Assembly (NCBI GenBank): GCA_043821485.1
Contig: JBDRCU010000037.1
Span: 28,746-92,745 of the forward strand
DNA length: 64,000 nucleotides
From: Parcubacteria group bacterium
GTDB lineage: Bacteria > Patescibacteriota > Minisyncoccia > 2-02-FULL-40-12 > IGHO2-01-FULL-4-A
Direction of reading: 5' to 3'
Shown here: in pieces, positions 11,273 through 49,261 of the stretch
How positions within the stretch are numbered: position 1 is the first letter of the stretch
How the letters are laid out: each line of letters begins with the position of its first letter
Program-made: the position numbers and the translations under genes
The notes under the pieces: generated by a model
The model's database searches: none
What the model was told of the DNA's origin: nothing
The model's input: the letters and a program-made list of their open reading frames with translations, nothing else

Positions 11273-11671
11273 CTATGGAGGCAGGATATCCAATAAAACA
11301 TCCTGAGCCAAGGGGCCTGATACTCTGACAGCATGACCAGTCCTGATCGGCTGACCTTCGGGAGATTTCACCATATCGTATGGCGAGATTTTCATCTGGA
11401 CTCGACAGGTCTCGTCTCCCAGAAGGATCTCCACGCAAATAGCGCCCTTCGATTCCCTGACTTCAAGGGTAAGGTTGCGCTCCCCGGACCCAAAGCCTGC
11501 ACTATGAAGCTCTAGGCCCTGACCCACGATTCGCACAGGAACCACGACTCTGGAGCACCCCTTAATGATACCTGTGACGGACTCTTTTCTCTCTCCTCCT
11601 CCCCCGTCGAAAGTACGTACTTCCGGCTCCTTGGGCCCTTTTGTGATGACGCTCTTCCTTGCTTCAGTCAT
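11273..11671 (-). CDS. Hypothetical protein (132 aa) in GC-rich island A, with a possible small beta-barrel/OB-like fold
   Basis: The ATG is at 11671 (MTEARKSV...), 6 nt downstream of a GGAGG Shine-Dalgarno site, and the gene has its own terminator. GC content is far above background. The longer in-frame upstream extension would overlap trpS and lacks a Shine-Dalgarno site. Confidence 0.55.
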   Translation of the reverse strand: MTEARKSVITKGPKEPEVRTFDGGGGERKESVTGIIKGCSRVVVPVRIVGQGLELHSAGFGSGERNLTLEVRESKGAICVEILLGDETCRVQMKISPYDMVKSPEGQPIRTGHAVRVSGPLAQDVLLDILPP

Positions 11672-12887: not shown

Positions 12888-12933
12888 GGATGGGATTCAT
12901 AGTTCGCATGTGTGTGGATTATGAATCCCATCC
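12888..12933. repeat. Perfect 13-bp inverted repeat (GGATGGGATTCAT ... ATGAATCCCATCC) with a 20-nt spacer
   Basis: Read directly from the sequence. The repeat lies about 70 nt upstream of the lipoprotein gene in island B. Confidence 0.6.
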
Positions 12934-13001
12934 GACGCAATTCTGTAGCGGATGAAGAAGGGACTCGGCCATTGCGGCTAGAGCCCAGAAGGAGACAGAC
13001 G

Positions 13002-13496
13002 ATGAAGTACAAGCTTCTCGTATCCGTGTTCGCGCTCCTGGCGGCTTCGCTACTGATGGCTGGGTGCGGTGGCAGTGGACCGACTAACTCCCTGGTCCAG
13101 CAGACCGTGCAGTCGGTCAGGATCGTAATGCCTGTTGACAGGGCGACGAGCCAAGAATCTCCGCCCGGACTGAGGAGCAACGGCTACACAAGCTTCTTGG
13201 TGGAAACAAAGGGTCATACCAACAGCCCGACTCTTCAGGCTTTCTTCGAGGAATGGTCTGCTATCGAAGGGGAGCCTCTATCTCTGACAGCGCACTTCAA
13301 AGACCTCGAGATACAGAACAACACACCTTCCCCCTCCGCGAACTGGAAGGTTATACCCCCGCAAGATTGGCCCAAAGCGACGCTCACCCGGCTATACATC
13401 TCGGTTCAACCTAAAGATCCCCGGACTGGCGATGGAGTAGGCGGAGATTACATCTGGGTCTATATCAACGGGCTCCCCACTGATCCGGCTGGCTAA
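13002..13496 (+). CDS. Putative lipoprotein (164 aa) in GC-rich island B
   Basis: The product starts MKYKLLVSVFALLAASLLMAGC, a signal peptide with an LMAGC lipobox. The RBS context is AAGGAGACAGACGATG. GC content is high. Confidence 0.65.
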   Translation: MKYKLLVSVFALLAASLLMAGCGGSGPTNSLVQQTVQSVRIVMPVDRATSQESPPGLRSNGYTSFLVETKGHTNSPTLQAFFEEWSAIEGEPLSLTAHFKDLEIQNNTPSPSANWKVIPPQDWPKATLTRLYISVQPKDPRTGDGVGGDYIWVYINGLPTDPAG

Positions 13497-20225: not shown

Positions 20226-20477
20226 CTACCTTCTTTCTACCGGCTCCACGGATTTCACCGTCCGCGACAAGAAGGACTTTTTCCTGTTGTCGATTTCGAC
20301 CTGCAGACTTTCTGAATTTGTCATACGGGGATTCAGTTCGTCAGGCACTTCGATCGCGACCAGTTCGCGTGAACTGAACGGACTTTCTTCGCCCTCTGTA
20401 ATCGGCCTACATCCTACCTTCCTGAGTTCTTCAGGAAAATCACTAGGAGCAATCGGATGCAACGTAACCCTATACAT
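20226..20477 (-). CDS. Small hypothetical protein (83 aa) in GC-rich island C
   Basis: The ATG follows a GAGGAGGGGATCAGA Shine-Dalgarno context. The product starts MYRVTLHPIAPSDFPEELRK. A hairpin lies downstream. Confidence 0.45.
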   Translation of the reverse strand: MYRVTLHPIAPSDFPEELRKVGCRPITEGEESPFSSRELVAIEVPDELNPRMTNSESLQVEIDNRKKSFLSRTVKSVEPVERR

Positions 20478-20551
20478 TCTGATCCCCTCCTCTCAACTCT
20501 TTGATAACGGATCCCTCAGAAAAGAAACTATCCTATTATCTCAAACGTCCT

Positions 20552-20586
20552 CCAAAAACGCAAGAAGCCCCGGGGGAGGGCTTCTT
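20552..20586 (-). terminator. Rho-independent terminator between the two island-C genes
   Basis: On the minus strand the hairpin AAGAAGCCC-loop-GGGCTTCTT is followed by GCGTTTTT. Confidence 0.55.
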
Positions 20587-20619
20587 GGCCTTCCTCCTCC
20601 GGAGCTACTGGAACTGGAC

Positions 20620-20886
20620 TCAGATCTTCGTGGAAGTCCTGAGCTTTGGGGGAATCTTGTCTAATCCCTTCTTGGGAACCGAGTACAAAGGTGGTACCTT
20701 CTTACAACCCTTAATTCGTATCACGGGTTTCAGTCCTGCGAACGCTCCTCTCGGCTCTGCTTCTCCTCTTGCTTTCCCCAAAGCAATTGCTGAAGCCTCG
20801 GCAGAAGAAAAACCCTCCTGACGAACCTTGCGATTTTCCCCTCCTATGGAGAGGGTAACTTCAAAAATCCCCGAGGAATGACTCAT
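20620..20886 (-). CDS. Small hypothetical protein (88 aa) in GC-rich island C
   Basis: The start is taken at the second ATG (MSHSSGIFEVTLSIGG...), which follows a GGGAGGA Shine-Dalgarno site with 8-nt spacing. The product is a small, possibly alpha/beta protein with a Lys/Pro-rich C-terminal tail. Confidence 0.45.
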   Translation of the reverse strand: MSHSSGIFEVTLSIGGENRKVRQEGFSSAEASAIALGKARGEAEPRGAFAGLKPVIRIKGCKKVPPLYSVPKKGLDKIPPKLRTSTKI

Positions 20887-20958
20887 GATGCCTGATCCTC
20901 CCATTCGGTAGATATCTCAATTATTCCATAAAAAAAAGATCCCGTCTTTCCACAGGTG

Positions 20959-21807
20959 TTAATATCCAAAAAGTTTCAGTTTCTTCTCAATCATTTCCTT
21001 TGTTGCTTCAACTGCTGGTTTTGCAAATTCGTAAGGCGTGGCAGACTCATCATCTTTGGCTAATTCTTCTTCCATTGCATCATGATATGCGATGCGTAGT
21101 TCAGTATTTACATGGACATTGGTTACTCCATGAGCAATTGCTGCTTCGACTTCTTCATCAGACAAGCCCGATCCCCCATGAAGTACGATATGTACATCAG
21201 GAACAACTTCACGAATAGATCTTAAAACATCAATATCTAAATGCATTGTCTGATCTGTTGTAATCCCATGCACATTCCCGAATGCAATTGCCAAACGATC
21301 GATCCCTGTTTTTTCGACAAATTCTTCTGCTTCCTTAGGTTTAGTGTAATCTTCGTGAAAAATTTCAACTTTTTCCTGAACTTTCGAACTTCCGCGCAGA
21401 TATCCCAGCTCCCCTTCAACCATCATGTCTGGATTTTTAGACTTTGCATATTTGACAACTTCTTTTGTAAGTTCAATATTACGTTCAAAAGGCAGAGCTG
21501 ATGCATCAATATGTATTGTGTCATAACCCGCATCCACCGCTCTTGTTGCGGTTTGCCAACCTTTATGATGATCTGCATTAAGAAAAATCGGATGGCCTGC
21601 TTCTTGATATGATTTAACCAAAGCCACAGCCTGATTGTAACCAACAAACAATGCTTCATTTTCAGAAGTAGCAACCATGAGCGGCGATCCGAGTTCTTTA
21701 GCAGTCTCAACAAAAGCCTTTAATTGATCTGCAAATGAAAAATTAAAATGACCGATGGCCCAATGCTCGTCTCTCGCTTGTTTAAAATATTCTTTTAGGG
21801 ATTTCAT
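20959..21807 (-). CDS. fba: Class II ketose-bisphosphate aldolase (fructose-/tagatose-bisphosphate aldolase family)
   Basis: The product starts MKSLKEYFKQARDEHWAIGHFNF and contains ...NADHH... and ...HGGSG... motifs typical of class II aldolases. Confidence 0.82.
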   Translation of the reverse strand: MKSLKEYFKQARDEHWAIGHFNFSFADQLKAFVETAKELGSPLMVATSENEALFVGYNQAVALVKSYQEAGHPIFLNADHHKGWQTATRAVDAGYDTIHIDASALPFERNIELTKEVVKYAKSKNPDMMVEGELGYLRGSSKVQEKVEIFHEDYTKPKEAEEFVEKTGIDRLAIAFGNVHGITTDQTMHLDIDVLRSIREVVPDVHIVLHGGSGLSDEEVEAAIAHGVTNVHVNTELRIAYHDAMEEELAKDDESATPYEFAKPAVEATKEMIEKKLKLFGY

Positions 21808-23057
21808 AATGTTATGAATCCGCGCACAAGATTCTCTTCAATCAATTCATTTAATTTATCACGTCCTAGATATTCAATAAATATCTTATTCCACAATGCT
21901 TCTTCCTGATGGTATAAATACTTGACTGTGCCTTTCTTAACCAAAGACATAGCAAGGTCAATCAGATCAAAACTTACTAAGCGTTCTCCTCCATTTTCTT
22001 TAAAAAAATCTCCTACAAAATCCAGTCCCTGCCAATATCCATAAGCATGCCCTTCTGCACCGGGAATGGATGTTAACTTGCCCAAATCCCCTTCTGCATT
22101 ATACCAGTGTTCTGCTTCAGGATTTACATGCGGTTCAAAAAGTCTAAAATCATTTTCATCATCCTTAGCCAAATATCTCTGAATTATACGAAATGTAATA
22201 GCTCCTTCCTGCGGAGTTGGTTCATCTGATACATCCCCTCTTAACAAGGATTGCACGCTTGGAATAAACTCATCACCTTTACCTGCAAAGTGCCGGAATA
22301 ACCGAGAATAAAAAGGCACTTCATTCAAATAATGGAAAAGTAATGTGAACATGCGCATTGTTTCTCCTGGCGCATCCACAGTAATAGGTGTTATGAATAT
22401 GATTCCATATTCCTTAAGATGGCTTAAGTTATGGTATTTCTTTTTCATAAACTTTTCTGCGACATCAAGCCACTTTGTATCAAGTACCAATACTTCAACA
22501 TCACGCTCTTCAAAGTCATCAGGGGTAAGATCTTTATAAGGCTCGTCAAAAAATTTATGCATCCATTCATTATCCTGCGCAAATCTAAGAGATGAAAATA
22601 CTGAAGCAAATCCTTCTTTTTTAACAAGCTCGGCAACACTGGAATATCCAAAGTGATCGAGCAAATTCTGCGGAGGATGAGATTCAAGCATTTCAATTGC
22701 TTTTTCTTTTTTAATAAAAAATCCCTTGCCGGGTTTACTTAGCTCAAGAGCAGTATCGCACATTCTTCCGCAGACTGGCGACATCTTCCTCAAATCAGGC
22801 TTTCCAAGAAATTCAAAAAGCTGTTTATCCATGAAAGACAAACGTTCAATAAGGGAATTATAGATATCGTCAGCCTTGGCTTCGTTCCTGTCTATACCAA
22901 GCTCTTTAAGAGTTCTTCCAATCAGAAGATCGTTCTCTTCAATAACATTCTGGATCACGCCCTCTTTGCCTGTTATCCCCTGCATCTTATCAGCAAGGCC
23001 TTTGAGTACTTCCGGCTTAGTACGAAGAATCCGAGCTAATTTATCATAATTATCCAT
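21804..23057 (-). CDS. Hypothetical protein (417 aa) co-located with sugar-phosphate enzymes
   Basis: This is a long ORF with no recognised motif. It overlaps fba by 4 nt, which suggests an operon. Confidence 0.55.
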   Translation of the reverse strand: MDNYDKLARILRTKPEVLKGLADKMQGITGKEGVIQNVIEENDLLIGRTLKELGIDRNEAKADDIYNSLIERLSFMDKQLFEFLGKPDLRKMSPVCGRMCDTALELSKPGKGFFIKKEKAIEMLESHPPQNLLDHFGYSSVAELVKKEGFASVFSSLRFAQDNEWMHKFFDEPYKDLTPDDFEERDVEVLVLDTKWLDVAEKFMKKKYHNLSHLKEYGIIFITPITVDAPGETMRMFTLLFHYLNEVPFYSRLFRHFAGKGDEFIPSVQSLLRGDVSDEPTPQEGAITFRIIQRYLAKDDENDFRLFEPHVNPEAEHWYNAEGDLGKLTSIPGAEGHAYGYWQGLDFVGDFFKENGGERLVSFDLIDLAMSLVKKGTVKYLYHQEEALWNKIFIEYLGRDKLNELIEENLVRGFITL

Positions 23058-23220
23058 ATTTAAATTATACCTTAAAAACCTGATAAAAAGGAGCTAATAT
23101 TAGACCATGCTTGTGCTGTCTTGACAATGTATATTAGAAGTGATATATATAGATTATCGTGAACAACGTATTAATCTCCTTCTAACTCCTGGCTCGTCTG
23201 AGCTGGGGAAAGGAACAGAG

Positions 23221-23346
23221 ATGCATCGTAACAAGGATCGGGGCCTACGAGCCCCCAAGAATAAGAGGACATTGAACCACAGTTTCAACCACATCGGCAC
23301 CGCCAACATCGCCACCGACGCCAGCGCCGGCCACCTGTCCGGCTGA
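23221..23346 (+). CDS. Candidate micro-ORF (41 aa) in GC-rich island D
   Basis: ATG preceded by AAAGGAACAGAG. The peptide is MHRNKDRGLRAPKNKRTLNHSFNHIGTANIATDASAGHLSG. A second 11-codon ORF, MHPRPQIRGPP, starts at about 23,388 with an AGAAGGAGACGACG-ATG context. Coding status is uncertain. Confidence 0.3.
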   Translation: MHRNKDRGLRAPKNKRTLNHSFNHIGTANIATDASAGHLSG

Positions 23347-23432
23347 GACAGCAGCCGCGCACGGCAGAAGGAGACGACGATGCACCCGCGACCGCAGATC
23401 AGGGGTCCCCCGTAGGATCCCACGTTCTCCCC

Positions 23433-23467
23433 GGGGCCGCCCCAGAAAGGCGGCCCTTTCACTTTTA
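23433..23467 (+). terminator. Rho-independent terminator (GGGGCCGCC-CCAGAAA-GGCGGCCC then TTTCACTTTT)
   Basis: The hairpin and T tract were read directly. The element is oriented for the plus strand at the end of island D. Confidence 0.55.
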
Positions 23468-24442
23468 GATAACCTCCACTTCCACCAACGGCCATTCACT
23501 AGTTTCGTCTTTCTTCAATATCCCGTCTTTAGCGCCAAACTTTGATACAACAGAAGAAGCGTTTGCAACAGCAAACTGTATAGCTTTAGTAATATCTTCA
23601 CTTCTCATATATTCTGCAACAAAACCAGAAGCAAAGGCGTCCCCTGCCCCTGTACGTTCTTCTATGGGTGAATCCGGAATCCCTGCTTTGTATTTTTTGC
23701 CTTCTTTATCTATAACAAGCACGCCCTCTATTCCTCCACTGACTGATACAATCCCTCCAACTATCTCATGTAGCTTGGATGCAATACCATCCCAGTCTTC
23801 TCTTTTTATTCCTGTTAATTGAGATCCTTCTTCCCTATTGCATGTAAATATATCCATATCGCCTGCAACTTTGAGTAATGCATCCGGACCATCCTTGAAC
23901 ATACTTCCTGTTGTATTGATTGCTAATTTAATTCCCTTGCTTTTCGCATGCTCAACAAGCTTATACATAACATCCCAATTATTCCCTACTGAACCCAGAT
24001 ACAACCACTTAGCATCTATCTTATCCAAATCAATTTTATTAACATCAAAATGCTGTGCCTCTCCTTTATAATTAAGGATCGTTCTACTTCCAGATGAATG
24101 CACCAGAATCACTGAATACGATGTTATATTATCATCATGCTTTTGTATTAAACTCGTATCAACTCCTTCATTCTCTAATACCTCGATAATCTCTTTACCG
24201 TCCTTATCCGCACCTATTATACAAATACTTGCAACATTGTGTCCTTGCCTTGCAAAAGTCACTGCTGAATTTGTTCCTCCTCCGCCAGTCGAGAATACAA
24301 TCTTATCTATATCAATCTTTGAACCAAGCGGGAAACACTCTATCTCCCCTGTTGGAGAATCTTCGCTTTTTGCAATAATAAAGCTATCATCTTCCATGAA
24401 AACATCTTTTGTTGCTGATCCTATTGTTATTACGTCAAACAT
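23465..24442 (-). CDS. PfkB-family carbohydrate kinase (ribokinase-like)
   Basis: The N-terminus is MFDVITIGSATKDVF. The GG motif STGGGGTNSA and the anion-hole motif GAGDAFASGF are present. Confidence 0.85.
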   Translation of the reverse strand: MFDVITIGSATKDVFMEDDSFIIAKSEDSPTGEIECFPLGSKIDIDKIVFSTGGGGTNSAVTFARQGHNVASICIIGADKDGKEIIEVLENEGVDTSLIQKHDDNITSYSVILVHSSGSRTILNYKGEAQHFDVNKIDLDKIDAKWLYLGSVGNNWDVMYKLVEHAKSKGIKLAINTTGSMFKDGPDALLKVAGDMDIFTCNREEGSQLTGIKREDWDGIASKLHEIVGGIVSVSGGIEGVLVIDKEGKKYKAGIPDSPIEERTGAGDAFASGFVAEYMRSEDITKAIQFAVANASSVVSKFGAKDGILKKDETSEWPLVEVEVI

Positions 24443-25537: not shown

Positions 25538-26526
25538 GACTCTAGTTTATTCAAATATGAGACTGCTGACAATAGGGCTGTTGTTCCTTGCCCAACTGCT
25601 ATAGCTATTTGATTATATGGAATGTTTGTAACATCTCCTGCAGCATAAAGCCCTGACACATTGGTCTCACCCGCCATATTTACAATAATTTGTTTAAAAT
25701 TGTCTTTTTCTGTATCTTCTGGCACTAAATCAGAATTAGGAATCATTCCTATGTGAACAAATATACCCTCAACATCGAGTGTCTGCTCAATGCCTGCTTC
25801 GTCGGTATATTTAAGCCCTGTGACAAAGTCAGTTCCCATAATTTCAGTAGTCTTTGCACTGTATATGACTGTTACATTTTTCTTTGATCTTAAATTATTA
25901 ATCAACATCTGATCTCCTTTAAACTTTGGATTTTTATTAATCACATAAACTTTCTCTGCGATTCCCGAAAGCATAAGCCCTGATTCAAGCGCGGAATTAC
26001 CTCCACCAACTGTTGCTACAGTTTTACCGGTAAATAGCGGACCATCGCAGGTCGTGCAATAACTAACTCCTTTATTTCTAAACTCTTTTTCACCAGGCAT
26101 TCCAAGCTGACGCGGATGTACGCCAGTTGCTACAATAACTGTCTTAGCAAGATAACCACATTTAGGCGCACCGTTAGTCGCCGGATCAATACGTTCAGAA
26201 GCCATCTTTGATTCTTTGCCTTTGCCTGGAGTTATACAGAACAATCCATCTTCTTGCTTGACTATATGAGCTACTTCAACACCTTCTTCAATATCGACAT
26301 TGTAATGTCTAAGGTGTTCCTTAAATTTCATAGTCAACTCAACACCGTCGATCTTCGTAAAACCGGGATAATTTCCTATCTCTCCTGATACTACTACTTC
26401 TCCTCCAAAATCTTTTGTAATTATTTTAAAGTTAAGACCCCGTCTTGCGGCGTATATTCCTGCAGCTGTTGCAGCTGCCGATCCTCCGACAATAAGGAGG
26501 TCTAGAGGTTTACTATTTTGATCCAT
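25534..26526 (-). CDS. trxB: Thioredoxin reductase-like FAD/NAD(P)-binding disulfide oxidoreductase
   Basis: A GxGxxA FAD-binding motif LIVGGSAAATAAGIYAARRG is present. A redox-active CTTCDG motif is present. A GG motif precedes a second Rossmann fold. Confidence 0.8.
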   Translation of the reverse strand: MDQNSKPLDLLIVGGSAAATAAGIYAARRGLNFKIITKDFGGEVVVSGEIGNYPGFTKIDGVELTMKFKEHLRHYNVDIEEGVEVAHIVKQEDGLFCITPGKGKESKMASERIDPATNGAPKCGYLAKTVIVATGVHPRQLGMPGEKEFRNKGVSYCTTCDGPLFTGKTVATVGGGNSALESGLMLSGIAEKVYVINKNPKFKGDQMLINNLRSKKNVTVIYSAKTTEIMGTDFVTGLKYTDEAGIEQTLDVEGIFVHIGMIPNSDLVPEDTEKDNFKQIIVNMAGETNVSGLYAAGDVTNIPYNQIAIAVGQGTTALLSAVSYLNKLES

Positions 26527-29568: not shown

Positions 29569-30108
29569 CTATCCCTGGAAGGTTTCAGTTGCCGCGCCAT
29601 TGGCATTGGGCCAGCGGCGCTTGAAAAGTATCGGAACGAGGATCCTGACGGGGACCTTATGTAAGGCACCCTCCAGCCACAGGATTACCTTGAGTCCTGG
29701 GAAGAAGTGATTCAGACGCTCACAGCAAGTCTGACACAAGTTGGCGACATGGATATCTCCAGTCTGCTTCTTTCTGTGAACTGTCACCAACGTTACCGGT
29801 TTCCCGTTCCTCTTAGCAGCACAGTGCATGAGCCCCACTTCGGCACAGCTCGAGGACTGACCTATGGGAGTATCGAGTTGGAGACCATCGAACTCATTGC
29901 CCTGGCTGTCGACGCTAAGCGCGTACAGCTGGTGAAAGCCATGCTGGTAATATCCCTCCAGTGCAGCCTTGGCCCGTTCGACAAGTCTCTCATCTTCCCT
30001 GGTCATCGGCTCTTCAAACTTCAGAATCATCTGGACGTGTGCACTGTGGCATATCGTTTCCAGCTTTTGCCACTCTTCTTGGTCTGGTTTGTCGGGTTTC
30101 TCGCCCAT
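29569..30108 (-). CDS. Cytidine/deoxycytidylate deaminase-fold protein (tetrameric CDA / blasticidin-S deaminase-like) in GC-rich island E
   Basis: Zinc ligand motifs SCAEV (CxE) and CQTCC (CxxC) are present. Their spacing, and the flanking pattern AKAAL..Y..GFHQLYAL...G......TP, match the homotetrameric cytidine deaminase pattern. The ATG at 30108 follows an AAGGGAG Shine-Dalgarno site. Confidence 0.7.
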   Translation of the reverse strand: MGEKPDKPDQEEWQKLETICHSAHVQMILKFEEPMTREDERLVERAKAALEGYYQHGFHQLYALSVDSQGNEFDGLQLDTPIGQSSSCAEVGLMHCAAKRNGKPVTLVTVHRKKQTGDIHVANLCQTCCERLNHFFPGLKVILWLEGALHKVPVRILVPILFKRRWPNANGAATETFQG

Positions 30109-30188
30109 CGGGTTCTCCCTTCTTCTAAATCCTGAGTTCCACGACAATAACAGACTATGATTTAAATGTCAAATCTACTTAATTCTAT

Positions 30189-42711: not shown

Positions 42712-43182
42712 ATGTTAAAAATTCGACTGCAACGCATTGGAAAGAAAAAACAAGCTTACTACAAAGTCGTAGTAACAGAACATACTCGCAAGCCAAAAGG
42801 CCAGTATCTTGAATTGCTTGGATCCTATGATCCTCATGCTAAAAAGATTGAAGTTGACGCTGAACGCGTTAAGCACTGGTTATCCCATGGAGCAAAGGCT
42901 TCTGCCACTGTGCATAATCTAATGGTGGGACATAATATAATAGAAGGGAAAAAAGTTACATCTTGGAAACCTAAAAAGAAGAAAGTGGAAGAATCTGAAG
43001 GGAAGGCAGATGCCCCTAAAAAAGAGGAGGTTAAGACAGAAGAAGTAAAAGAAGAAACAAAAACAGATGAGCCAGAAGCAGAAGCGGAGACAAAACCAGA
43101 ATTAGAATCAAAAGAAGGGGAAATAAAGGAAGAAGTAAAAGAGGAGCCGAAGGAAGAACCAAAAGAGGAAAAGAAAGATTGA
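42712..43182 (+). CDS. rpsP: 30S ribosomal protein bS16 with a long Lys/Glu-rich C-terminal extension
   Basis: The N-terminus is MLKIRLQRIGKKKQAYYKVVV. The extension after residue 90 or so is about 60 aa of KE-rich low complexity. Confidence 0.9.
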   Translation: MLKIRLQRIGKKKQAYYKVVVTEHTRKPKGQYLELLGSYDPHAKKIEVDAERVKHWLSHGAKASATVHNLMVGHNIIEGKKVTSWKPKKKKVEESEGKADAPKKEEVKTEEVKEETKTDEPEAEAETKPELESKEGEIKEEVKEEPKEEPKEEKKD

Positions 43183-43301
43183 CACAAGTCCCGTCCAGCG
43201 CTATATTAATACTCGCATATACCATAATAACGAAAAGCAGAAAACAGCATTGCGTTGACAATATACTGTAATCGGAATGCCTGTAAGATCTGCCCCCTAC
43301 A

Positions 43302-43670
43302 ATGGAAGAATACGATAAAGAGTTTGTCGAATATATTGTTAAAGGCATAGTAAACATCCCTGACAAAGTCGAGGTTTCAAGAAAGGTTGACGAGATGGGA
43401 GTACTGCTTGAGGTCAAAGTAGATCCAAGTGATATGGGTTTACTCATCGGACGAAGTGGTGCAACTGCCAAAGCCATCCGCGTACTAGCACGTATAGTTG
43501 GAATGAGAAACAATGCACGTGTAAATCTCCGTATCATTGAGCCAGAAGGAAGTACACGAGGCCCAGGTGCAAGCGCTCCAAATAATTCTGCATCTGCACC
43601 AGTCCCAGTACCTGCACAAGGTGAGAAATCAACAAGCATCGACGACGTAGTAAATAACCTCGGAGTCTAA
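43302..43670 (+). CDS. KH-domain RNA-binding protein (YlqC/UPF0109-like) in the rpsP-trmD operon
   Basis: The KH GxxG loop LIGRSGATAKAIR is present. The gene order rpsP-KH-trmD is classic. Confidence 0.78.
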   Translation: MEEYDKEFVEYIVKGIVNIPDKVEVSRKVDEMGVLLEVKVDPSDMGLLIGRSGATAKAIRVLARIVGMRNNARVNLRIIEPEGSTRGPGASAPNNSASAPVPVPAQGEKSTSIDDVVNNLGV

Positions 43671-43746
43671 AAGCAATTATAATCAAAACCGCCGCAAGGC
43701 GGTTTTGATATTGCATAAAATGACAAAAGTGAGTAGGGTAATATGT

Positions 43747-45724: not shown

Positions 45725-46387
45725 ATGCGTTACGCGGGCCTATTCCTGTTGGTGGTCGCCATCATGGCGACCCTCACAATCAACTCCGAACCCGCCTTCG
45801 CCGGAGACCTGTTCGACAGGATCCTTAGCGAGGGCTTGGCTGGCACCGATCGAGACCACGTCGTCACGACTGCCCGCCAGACGATCCGCGAGGACAGCGA
45901 CATCCGTGACCCCGGAACAACTGGAAGCATCTACGAAGGGGTCGACATCACAAACAAGGTACTTGGAAATCCTTACGGTGGCGGGGGAACCAAGGGAACG
46001 CTAACCCGCCTAGGTGGAGCTGGACTGTTCTACTTCCTGGACAGTACGGGTCGCATTCGACATCCGAGTCATACACGTCAATCGGCGGATGTCGTCAAGC
46101 AGATCGAAGCCAAACCCGATACCGTGACCCGACCGACACCGGACCCAAGCATGGAGTGGTCTCTCAACAACGTGACGACCGACAAAACCATGGTCGTCTA
46201 CTACCAGAACGAGATGCTCTTCGTGCTCAACGGCGGAGAGTCGAACTTCCATGCGATTCCTCTGAGCTGGAACTCCACCCGCTTCAGGGCGGAGATCCTG
46301 GAACAGGATCCATCGACTGGCGCCCTTGTTCGCAGTGCTGCGACCAGAACGGCCACCGGAAGCTACGGCTTCAACTTCTCCGACTAG
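45725..46387 (+). CDS. Hypothetical secreted protein (220 aa) in GC-rich island F
   Basis: A signal peptide MRYAGLFLLVVAIMATLTINSEPAFAG is present. The RBS context is GAGGAGAAAGGTC. GC content is high. Confidence 0.6.
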   Translation: MRYAGLFLLVVAIMATLTINSEPAFAGDLFDRILSEGLAGTDRDHVVTTARQTIREDSDIRDPGTTGSIYEGVDITNKVLGNPYGGGGTKGTLTRLGGAGLFYFLDSTGRIRHPSHTRQSADVVKQIEAKPDTVTRPTPDPSMEWSLNNVTTDKTMVVYYQNEMLFVLNGGESNFHAIPLSWNSTRFRAEILEQDPSTGALVRSAATRTATGSYGFNFSD

Positions 46388-48113: not shown

Positions 48114-49017
48114 AGAGATTAAGAAATAAAATTTGCGACCTGTCAAGAGTAATCTGGCAGAAAAACCCGACTAATATCGGTGAAACCTAAATCTTAAAAT
48201 GTTATAATTAAGATATGGTAATACCGAGGAAAGCTAGGAGAATCACATATTCAACTGAAATAAGAGAGCTAAAAAAGAGACTAAAACTAGATGAGTCACA
48301 AAAGGCTATAGTGATAGGCAGTATATTGGGCGATGCAACATTAGAGCTCAATTGGTCAAAAACCAACTGCCGAATGAGAATTGATCATTCTATAAAACAA
48401 GAGGATTACGTACGACTAAAGTATACAATCCTCAAGGACTGGGTACTTACTGAACCTAAATACTACAAGCCTCATAGGTCCATATGGTTCCGAACAATAA
48501 GTCATCCCAACCTTACTGAACTATGGAAAATATTCTACAAGAACAAGAAAAAAATTATACCAGAAAATATAGCTGAACTAATCCAAAACCCCCTTACTGT
48601 TGCAACATGGTTTATGGATGATGGTAATGTACGAAGACGAAATTCACGTATAATTTCCTACGACCTCAATACTCAATCGTTCACATACGCAGAAAATGAA
48701 AAACTTCTGAACGCCTTGAAAACGGTCTATGGAATATCTTGCAGTCTACATAAAAATCATAACAGACATAGAATATATATCGGTACCAATGAAAAAAATA
48801 AATTCCAAAAGATAATACGTAAATTATCAACACCATCTCTTAAATACAAACTTCAGTGAATATGTGATTCTCTTGGCCCCGTAGAGACTTCTCGTACTCT
48901 GGCCCCATAGCAGAACGAGGGATAGCTGTACGTAGACAGCTATAATACGTCGGCCCCAGTTATTAAAAACTGGGTGAAGATATAGTCCATGCTCGTGGAA
49001 ACACGGGAATAAACATG
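48114..49017 (+). other. Intervening sequence (probable group I intron) in the 16S rRNA at an E. coli ~1506-equivalent site
   Basis: Exon 1 ends ...GAAGTCGT and exon 2 starts AACAAGGCACGG, which restores the universal GAAGTCGTAACAAGG. A U precedes the 5' splice site and the intron ends in G. The boundaries are approximate, within a few nt. Confidence 0.6.
48215..48859 (+). CDS. Intron-encoded double-motif LAGLIDADG homing endonuclease
   Basis: Motif 1 is IVIGSILGDATLE. Motif 2 is TVATWFMDDGNV. The ORF lies wholly inside the 16S insertion. Confidence 0.85.
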   Translation: MVIPRKARRITYSTEIRELKKRLKLDESQKAIVIGSILGDATLELNWSKTNCRMRIDHSIKQEDYVRLKYTILKDWVLTEPKYYKPHRSIWFRTISHPNLTELWKIFYKNKKKIIPENIAELIQNPLTVATWFMDDGNVRRRNSRIISYDLNTQSFTYAENEKLLNALKTVYGISCSLHKNHNRHRIYIGTNEKNKFQKIIRKLSTPSLKYKLQ

Positions 49018-49261
49018 AACAAGGCACGGCTAGGAGAACCTGGTCGTGGATCACCTCCTTTCTATACAAAAACTCCTGCTTTATGCAGGTGCTGTATAGA
49101 AACATTAGGTGTCGATATAGGTTGTGCGAGGTTTGTTCGTCGATAGACAAGCACCTCGTACAAACTAAGGCTGGCTGATACAGCCCAATCTATCAGCGTT
49201 TGATGCTACCGAAAAGCACACTATCTAGTTAATGATACAAATAGACGTATAAACTCTAAAC

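Follow-up and report, generated by a model that had tools for sequence, protein, structure and literature searches.

Between the genes for a PfkB-family kinase and a 417-amino-acid (aa) protein of a Parcubacteria group bacterium lies a 407-nt spacer that contains a plus-strand unit, antisense to both flanking genes, which we call island D. We analyzed it within a window of 64,000 nt (GenBank assembly GCA_043821485.1, contig JBDRCU010000037.1, positions 28,746 to 92,745), and positions below are those of the window. Island D is a real, lineage-specific, compositionally foreign mini-cassette that splits a pentose-phosphate/glycolysis operon. Its GC-rich body has the codon periodicity of protein-coding sequence and ends in a short open reading frame (ORF), ORF2, with the C-terminus Arg-Gly-Pro-Pro (RGPP), followed by an intrinsic terminator. 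The reading that we tentatively favor is that island D is a stranded leader cassette, imported and derived from coding sequence, whose arrest-type mini-ORF no longer has a gene to regulate.

An insertion with its own signals and a coding-like body

In related contigs the operon runs TrxR, RpiB, (2-hydroxyacid dehydrogenase), Rpe, PfkB, 417-aa gene, FBA, and the PfkB and 417-aa genes overlap or nearly touch. Among the 70 related loci in which both genes could be placed, the gap between them is ≤35 nt in 38, 36 to 240 nt (mostly AT-rich palindromes) in 23, and >400 nt in 9. PfkB is here conserved to its last residue, up to the stop codon; because of this and of the mostly short gaps in relatives, the whole spacer must be extra sequence. 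It has two parts, an AT-rich divergent-promoter region (23058 to ∼23184) and the GC-rich body (∼23185 to 23464). Since the 417-aa gene is no longer fused to PfkB, the insertion must provide its promoter, and the TATAAT box close to its ATG is the predicted one, of the leaderless type. The arrangement TATAAT-N6-8-ATG recurs at many native genes of the window. The 417-aa protein has 100% identity to ABH833_02330 of a Parcubacteria-group metagenome-assembled genome (MAG), and its nearest relatives (∼68%) are in Candidatus Yanofskybacteria. Exact-sequence look-ups of the flanking proteins found no record.

The original prediction, a short note made from the sequence alone, had described a GC-rich plus-strand unit between two minus-strand genes, and both parts of this description are borne out. 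The right-hand ∼290 nt of the spacer have 62 to 67% G+C in 200-nt windows, with a peak of 73% in 120-nt windows, against 39.7% for the 64-kb window, and the stretch is strongly T-poor on the plus strand (AT skew of +0.5). The G+C content also depends on codon position. In the ORF1 frame it is 0.55/0.55/0.82 over 23221 to 23450, a bias reached by none of 2,000 dinucleotide-preserving shuffles (p < 0.0005). ORF1 alone has a third-position G+C (GC3) of 0.79 versus 0.50 at the other positions (p = 0.002), and the segment from the ORF1 stop to just before the terminator stem keeps a period-3 signal in the same frame (p = 0.0175). As the signal is significant on each segment separately, the GC3 bias of the shared frame, at 0.80 versus 0.56, runs on across the TGA and TAG stop codons. 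GC3 is 0.78 to 0.82 in island D, 0.27 to 0.32 in native genes and 0.63 to 0.71 in the genes of other GC-rich islands. Scored with a codon table of those island genes, the frame of ORF1 and ORF2 is the best of six (−8.3 bits, the next best being −17.5), and shuffles match such a best-of-six score by chance with P = 0.021, so that it beats 98% of them.

Signals for transcription frame this body (Table 1). A promoter-like site with the architecture TTGACA-N14-TGaTATATA was picked out by eye; a strict promoter scan called none, because the −10 hexamer, TATATA, ends in A and lacks the final T. The site is the sole match in the 64-kb window to the expression TTGAC-N13-15-TGnTAnAnn, and analogous cTTGACAa-N14-TGcTATACT promoters stand at the same place and in the same orientation in relatives. 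Transcription would start near 23156 and probably yields an RNA of ∼310 nt. At the other end, the predicted terminator is present, with a 9-bp stem, and its tail overlaps the PfkB stop codon (23465-23467, minus strand).

ORF1 is exactly the 41-residue ORF that the original prediction gave. Its peptide is basic and hydrophilic, with in-frame tandem repeats of 12 nt and 15 nt. The peptide proposed for ORF2 was also correct; its start had been placed at about 23388 and is in fact the ATG at 23380. ORF2 shares the frame of ORF1 (23380 − 23221 = 159 nt, or 53 codons), and its stop ends 17 nt before the terminator stem. In the predicted fold of the 5′ leader, a CU-rich element resembling an anti-Shine-Dalgarno sequence (UCUCCUUCU, 23175-23183) pairs with the Shine-Dalgarno (SD) region of ORF1, AAGGA (23210-23214), and the ORF1 start codon lies at the foot of this helix. 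The same element is complementary at 9/9 positions to the ORF2 SD at 23366-23374 (inverted repeat I3). Folding z-scores over island D are ∼−2.3 to −2.6, which is modest and similar on both strands. A type I toxin-antitoxin module would have an SD-masking 5′ hairpin, as here, but both peptides are hydrophilic, and we identified no antisense promoter. Hydrophobic segments are absent from ORF2 and from the 64-aa read-through frame alike.

Table 1. Positions of island D features, flanking genes and other elements discussed (window coordinates, except for R1, which is given by related locus)
Feature	Position	Strand	Details
Lineage-specific insertion, whole	23058..23464		PfkB stop to 417-aa gene start; based on the PfkB C-terminus and the gaps of relatives
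Promoter-like site	23121..23149	+	−35 TTGACA at 23121-23126, 17-nt spacer, TG-extended −10 TGATATATA at 23141-23149
5′ leader hairpin	23174..23222	+	Local fold of −20.1 kcal/mol, z = −2.57
ORF1	23221..23346	+	41 codons plus TGA; encodes MHRNKDRGLRAPKNKRTLNHSFNHIGTANIATDASAGHLSG
ORF2 SD and spacer, AGAAGGAGACGACG	23366..23379	+	Strong SD
ORF2	23380..23415	+	11 codons, MHPRPQIRGPP; TAG at 23413-23415; RGPP core encoded at 23401-23412
Hairpin GGGGUCC/GGAUCCC	23402..23421	+	Over the last ORF2 codons and the stop; local fold
Intrinsic terminator	23433..23467	+	Stem 23433-23441/23449-23457, 9 bp (8 G-C), 7-nt loop, tail TTTCACTTTT
TATAAT box	23064..23069	-	6 nt upstream of the 417-aa gene ATG; read from sequence
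417-aa gene	21804-23057	-	Left flank of island D
PfkB-family kinase gene	23465-24442	-	Right flank of island D
Minus-strand ORF	23495 down to 23154	-	113 codons
Further GC-rich islands	11273-11671, 13002-13496, 20226-20904, 29569-30147, 45725-46387	-, +, -, -, +	49-58% G+C
R1 RNA domain copies	L029:2400-2522, L007:2699-2823, L012:2401-2530, L019:585-711, L009:362-487	- (all)	

Strong SDs occur at both island-D ORFs and at the genes of two other GC-rich islands, 13002-13496 (island B) and 45725-46387 (island F). Of 50 long native ORFs, only 8 are preceded by an SD-like sequence, and in many a −10 box abuts the ATG; the sequences suggest that leaderless mRNAs are widespread among native genes. 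TATAAT-like boxes 6 to 8 nt before the ATG, without an SD, are seen for example at 1619, 11759, 23057, 26526, 31512 and 48215. The host 16S rRNA carries the anti-SD GATCACCTCCTT at 49049-49060, beyond an intervening sequence, and the host can therefore use strong SDs; a host that has lost the anti-SD is ruled out by this 16S 3′ end, which contains CACCUCCUU. The original prediction had called the SD context of ORF2 almost identical to that of island B, and we find that the ORF2 start region (23365-23382) and that of the island-B lipoprotein gene (12986-13004) agree at 18/19 positions with one indel (CAGAAGGAGAC[A]GACGATG). In the window, the 10-mer AGAAGGAGAC occurs only at the ORF2 SD and upstream of the island-B gene (12987), with 0.10 expected by chance. 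The likeness of the two start regions suggests a shared source or a duplicated start module.

The C-terminus of ORF2, I-R-G-P-P, is followed directly by TAG, after 11 codons, or after 64 on read-through of the in-frame TGA. A six-frame search of the window for R[AG]PP gives two instances, of which only the one in ORF2 has a stop as its next codon. Extended to 88 Parcubacteria loci beside the window, a total of 1.29 million six-frame codons, the search gives nine instances, and a stop follows immediately in two of them. Of 20,000 shuffles of the island, 0.2% have R[AG]PP-stop in a plus frame. Published experiments establish RAPP and RGPP as versatile arrest cores: during arrest the P site contains the nascent chain, with Arg-Ala/Gly-Pro at its end, and the A site contains Pro-tRNA. 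Among the RAPP-like cores tested, arrest was reported to be most robust with RGPP, in several N-terminal contexts, and EF-P did not release the arrest of RAPP-containing peptides (PMC12992588, PMC10951233). According to the same work, RGPP is also the four-residue sequence most strongly excluded in many bacterial phyla, and such motifs cluster close to the C-terminal ends of small ORFs that lie upstream of a range of genes, especially in Actinomycetota and Gram-negatives (PMC12992588, PMC10951233). Genetic selections also yielded RxPP motifs; upstream residues modulate arrest, and RAPP alone is insufficient in ApdA or ApdP (PMC7897499).

What could arrest on ORF2 do? With CCC (23407) in its P site, a ribosome would be expected to cover the mRNA to ∼23423, and at the stop codon to ∼23426, and the terminator stem starts at 23433. 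Since the footprint ends short of the stem, a working attenuator is unlikely. Local folds in this region show only the hairpin over the end of ORF2 and the terminator, and no upstream segment is complementary to GGGGCCGCC. The first plus-strand gene beyond the terminator comes only at 26518, and no same-strand gene lies within 3 kb. Start-site unmasking is thus impossible, as there is no downstream start, and antitermination is unsupported by spacing or by an alternative helix.

The same junction in relatives and the search for homologs

Long inserts between PfkB and the 417-aa gene are found in the 9 of 70 loci noted above and also in the closest relatives, L090 and L092 (related loci are given by L numbers). 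Two contain a sigma-factor-like gene (L027, L031) and one a membrane-protein gene (L056). In the remaining long inserts, the strand opposite to the operon carries between one and three units that are poor in ORFs; each has an intrinsic terminator and a cTTGACAa-N14-TGcTATACTTAA promoter. None of these units matches Rfam or contains a tRNA, and the RNA-like inserts show no codon periodicity. Tandem units of ∼95 to 530 nt, differing in sequence between species, are seen at L090:1527-1966, at L092:1-163 and in the gaps of L012, L017 and L029 (operon-antisense strand). In the same slot, on the antisense strand, L037 (2524-2989) has an SD-led (TAAGGAGGT), GC-rich ORF of 71 codons (MVVRLSPVRLNGKKVRGW...) with its own promoter and terminator and with no Pfam or PHROG match.

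In five Yanofskybacteria-like species, an RNA domain of ∼125 nt, here R1, lies antisense to and immediately upstream of the 417-aa gene. In this domain three stems meet in a junction closed by the helix GAACC/GGUUC, and one conserved loop reads ACUCAAGUAAGU. The structure is supported by covariation: 90% of cells are paired versus 25 to 47% with slid partners, eight pairs are changed on both sides, and the observed score was reached by 0/500 shuffles. R1 has no Rfam match. A covariance model built from L007, L012 and L029 gave no match to the window at E up to 10 and, with filters off, nothing inside 23171-23470; by blastn, tblastx and covariance model, island D has no homology to the junction inserts of relatives. 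The promoter position is common to the relatives and the body behind it keeps changing, here to a GC-rich coding-like fragment. Given the shared place of the promoters and the differing bodies of the units, the position has been kept and the body replaced, and the junction acts as a fast-turnover slot for small RNA-like genes in this clade. Separately, AT-rich gaps of 100 to 160 nt made of long near-perfect palindromes occur in L010, L013, L015, L016, L024, L051, L053 and L071, and these could be terminators or small palindromic elements.

Island D itself belongs to no family tested. The covariance models of Rfam 15 gave nothing at the gathering score and, at E up to 10, four weak matches (E of 2 to 6.5) far below threshold, and ARAGORN found no tmRNA or tRNA at island D. 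Protein searches used the plus-frame read-through (83 aa) and a 54-aa query containing ORF1. The plus-frame translation found no candidate among 5.8 billion protein clusters, no match by full HMMER in 1.84 billion representatives, no relative in JGI metagenomes or IMG/VR, and no match in plasmids by tblastn, and no frame of island D has a Pfam or PHROG match. The exact sequences of four ORFs of the region, two per strand, are absent from a collection of 15 billion proteins that holds the other proteins of this MAG. At the DNA level, phage and plasmid sequences gave only low-complexity GC matches of 27 to 55 nt (E ≥ 0.03), exact 23- to 24-mers of island D are absent from metagenome and viral contigs, and tblastx against the window and 89 loci returned only low-complexity Pro/Thr or Arg matches. 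A degenerate pattern of the start region had four viral matches, about chance level for 18 specified bases. The window holds no second copy of island D, only chance matches of 10 to 15 nt. A donor was also sought through the island-B lipoprotein, which is likewise without a homolog. The idea of a miniature inverted-repeat transposable element (MITE) or other terminal repeats was rejected, as the only candidate was a gapped 10-nt inverted repeat partly within the PfkB coding sequence. The original prediction had staked itself on the ORFs being conserved or translated and on the region matching no known RNA family. Neither ORF has a homolog, so that on conservation it formally fails, or at least could not pass; on RNA families it holds, at least for Rfam.

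Alternative readings of island D

If island D is a stranded leader cassette, its GC-rich body would be a protein-coding fragment from a GC-richer, SD-initiating organism, and the intact GC-rich orphan genes elsewhere in the window would be the same kind of import. The fragment would have landed behind a native promoter at a quickly changing junction. ORF2, if translated, would be expected to arrest ribosomes as the RAPP/RGPP peptides do, the P site being at Pro10 (CCC, 23407-23409) and the A site at Pro11. The module may be an upstream ORF (uORF), or what is left at the end of a small ORF of ∼64 codons that terminated in RGPP and that the TGA has interrupted; its regulated gene would have been lost or never transferred, and the module would be no working regulator. 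It is the missing cistron, together with a footprint that stops short of the stem, that leads us to read it as a stranded arrest-type leader. A cis-regulatory leader with a lost gene was one of the options in the original prediction and is the best fitting of them, with the reservation that neither ORF has a known relative. Its comparison of the 11-mer to ribosome-arrest or leader peptides is likewise supported in part, by the RGPP core before the stop, and lacks a homolog, a downstream gene and an antiterminator.

Several points weigh against this reading. Island D is a single sequence without relatives, so translation, arrest and foreign origin are beyond a check by conservation, and the practical weight of the case is limited. 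No donor lineage is identified. The 113-codon minus-strand ORF uses the same third codon positions as the plus frame, and GC3 periodicity alone therefore fixes no strand. The dependence of RGPP arrest on upstream residues (PMC7897499) is a concern for a nascent chain of 10 residues, which is short, and the motif match was recognized after the fact, so we take it as suggestive and as no proof. Finally, one would not expect DNA that decays in a streamlined genome to keep a promoter intact along with two SDs and a terminator, and their presence hints at some current function. The unit may retain a role, as an RNA or through the ORF1 peptide, and these intact signals are the main argument for it.

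A rival reading makes island D a small non-coding RNA (sRNA) gene of ∼310 nt that occupies an sRNA slot upstream of the 417-aa gene, with the ORFs and RGPP incidental. Structured RNA genes are classically recognized by a GC-rich body within an AT-rich genome, together with a promoter-like site and a strong terminator (PMC6429828), all of which island D has. The relatives have ORF-poor promoter/terminator units at the same junction and in the same orientation, the R1 family among them, in five species, shows covariation, and the folding z-scores of island D point the same way. However, those z-scores are modest and alike on both strands, no R1 match appears even with filters off, and no Rfam family fits. 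The strong period-3 GC bias is unexpected in an RNA gene and absent from the units of relatives, and two canonical SD-ATG starts plus an RGPP-stop would need coincidence. We thus consider an sRNA gene unlikely. Somewhat less likely again is a working two-cistron small-protein gene, in which the 41-aa ORF1 peptide has a cellular role and arrest on ORF2 adjusts how strongly the transcript is expressed or how stable it is. In favor of this, each ORF has an ATG at the canonical distance from an SD, an anti-SD is present in the host, the coding signal is in frame with internal repeats that are multiples of three, and the unit is intact from promoter to terminator; in one surveyed genome, short ORFs were found in about a quarter of the long GC-rich intergenic regions examined (PMC6429828). 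Yet the ORF1-containing peptide has no homolog in the 1.84 billion representatives or 5.8 billion clusters, and the exact ORF sequences are missing from the protein set in which the other proteins of the MAG occur, although an annotation call from another start is possible. Moreover, the first SD is buried in a −20 kcal/mol hairpin, and a coding signal that continues through TGA and TAG suggests a broken longer ORF.

The remaining explanations are improbable to differing degrees. An RGPP mini-ORF acting as a functional, free-standing arrest sensor, tied to the terminator and to convergent/antisense transcription over the PfkB/pentose-phosphate operon, at a junction that is a conserved slot of swapped, strongly expressed antisense RNA/mini-ORF units in Yanofskybacteria-like genomes, is an improbable combination. 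Slightly more doubtful still is an active arrest-peptide attenuator, in which stalling or release at RGPP would set terminator read-through, antisense into the PfkB-Rpe-RpiB-TrxR operon. In its favor, the SD-led mini-ORF with its arrest core ends just before an intrinsic terminator, and the unit is convergent with the operon, so that read-through would be antisense. Against it, folds and inspection reveal no antiterminator pairing with the 5′ arm of the terminator, the ribosome at arrest or stop stays clear of the stem, there is no nearby same-strand gene, and nothing is conserved. The true gene could instead be the minus-strand ORF, an extra operon gene between PfkB and the 417-aa gene; it has the orientation of the operon, 113 open codons and GC-rich third positions shared with the plus frame. 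We find this highly improbable. From base composition, an ORF of this length has an estimated probability of ∼0.1 given the A-poor strand, the encoded protein contains much W, C and R, the plus frame scores 9 bits better with the codon table, the ORF has no SD and no Pfam or PHROG match, and its exact sequence is missing from the collection with the MAG's other proteins. The plus frame is preferred because of the codon score, the W/C/R-rich minus-strand product and the SD, ATG and terminator signals, all of which are on the plus strand. That island D is an assembly artifact, a chimeric GC-rich insert in a MAG contig, is hardly credible. It is a singleton from a metagenome-assembled genome and was not found in the other datasets searched. 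Against this, native genes in synteny lie on either side, the tail of the terminator and the stop codon of PfkB overlap, the AT-rich divergent promoter region provides the promoter that the 417-aa gene now needs, and several other GC-rich islands on the contig are similarly well framed.

How closely does a stranded leader cassette compare with known systems? Island D resembles RGPP/RAPP arrest uORFs in the core motif only. The class of RAPP/RGPP-type arrest peptides comprises ApdA, ApdP, ApcA, SecM-like peptides and the uORFs described by Fujiwara et al. 2025 (PMC12992588); ORF2 is like it in having the core, R-G-P-P, as the very last residues of a small ORF, and in the SecM sequence GIRAGP an Ile precedes the Arg, as in ORF2. 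According to the literature, RAPP/RGPP uORFs occur commonly in GC-rich Actinomycetota and in Gram-negatives (PMC12992588), which fits a GC-rich donor. In contrast to those peptides, ORF2 has only 11 codons and no signal peptide or membrane anchor (usual in the class, though not universal), island D has no homologs and no downstream same-strand gene, and the arrest is putative. Attenuators of the trpL/hisL/pheL type likewise place a short SD-led ORF right before an intrinsic terminator, but here no antiterminator helix was found, no operon follows and the terminator lies outside the ribosome footprint. Surveys of GC-rich intergenic regions (PMC6429828) describe cases like island D, long GC-rich regions in AT-rich genomes with short coding-like frames and no known RNA; unlike them, island D is a singleton without an alignment, and its frame is broken by two stop codons. 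With R1 it has in common the slot, the orientation and a similar promoter architecture, but no match in sequence or structure, and R1 lacks codon periodicity.

If ORF2 stalls ribosomes, it would be an unusually short arrest-type mini-ORF in Patescibacteria, adjoining a terminator instead of a gene; limited literature searches found no arrest-type mini-ORF in that group. If true, this would bear on the spread of the RGPP/RAPP module by gene transfer and on its fate once stranded. On a more ordinary reading, the case shows that what stands out as GC-rich in an AT-rich genome may be a relic of coding sequence and no structured RNA. The more reusable by-product is R1, a covariation-supported RNA domain, not in Rfam, at the same junction in relatives.

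Other GC-rich islands and features of the window

Island D can also be compared with putative horizontally acquired orphan gene cassettes and their decay products, of which 13002-13496, 45725-46387 and 11273-11671 are intact examples in the window. Like island D, these combine a GC-rich body and high GC3 with a strong SD and a terminator of their own, and they lack homologs. Island D differs in being much shorter and without a long ORF, and it may be only the regulatory head of such a cassette. Among the further islands, GC3 is 0.63 to 0.71 in B, F and 29569-30147, and 0.47 to 0.54 in the two ORFs at 20226-20904. Their proteins have no Pfam or PHROG match; four are present in the 15-billion-protein set, each as a singleton, and the ORF at 20226-20477 is absent from it. 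The island-B protein has a lipoprotein signal and the island-F protein a signal peptide, and the 192-aa product of 29569-30147 contains a deaminase-like motif, CAE...PCxxC. In the 5′ leader of the island-B gene there is a perfect 14-bp inverted repeat, GGATGGGATTCATA ... TATGAATCCCATCC, at 12900-12950.

The Rfam 16S match ends at 48143, and the canonical 3′ end with the anti-SD lies ∼900 nt further on. This implies a probable intervening sequence (48144-49060) near the 16S 3′ end, with a predicted 214-aa ORF (start 48215). Insertions in rRNA genes of the Candidate Phyla Radiation are known. Genes for tRNA-Ile (56700) and tRNA-Ala (57706) follow ∼7.6 kb downstream of the 16S end, with protein-size ORFs between, and no 23S rRNA match was reported in the window, of which ∼6 kb follows the tRNA-Ala gene. 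Elsewhere on the plus strand, at 43179-43720, a good promoter-like site (TTGACA-N17-TATATT) is followed by ∼500 nt before the next long ORF, and this stretch may be another unannotated RNA or small gene.

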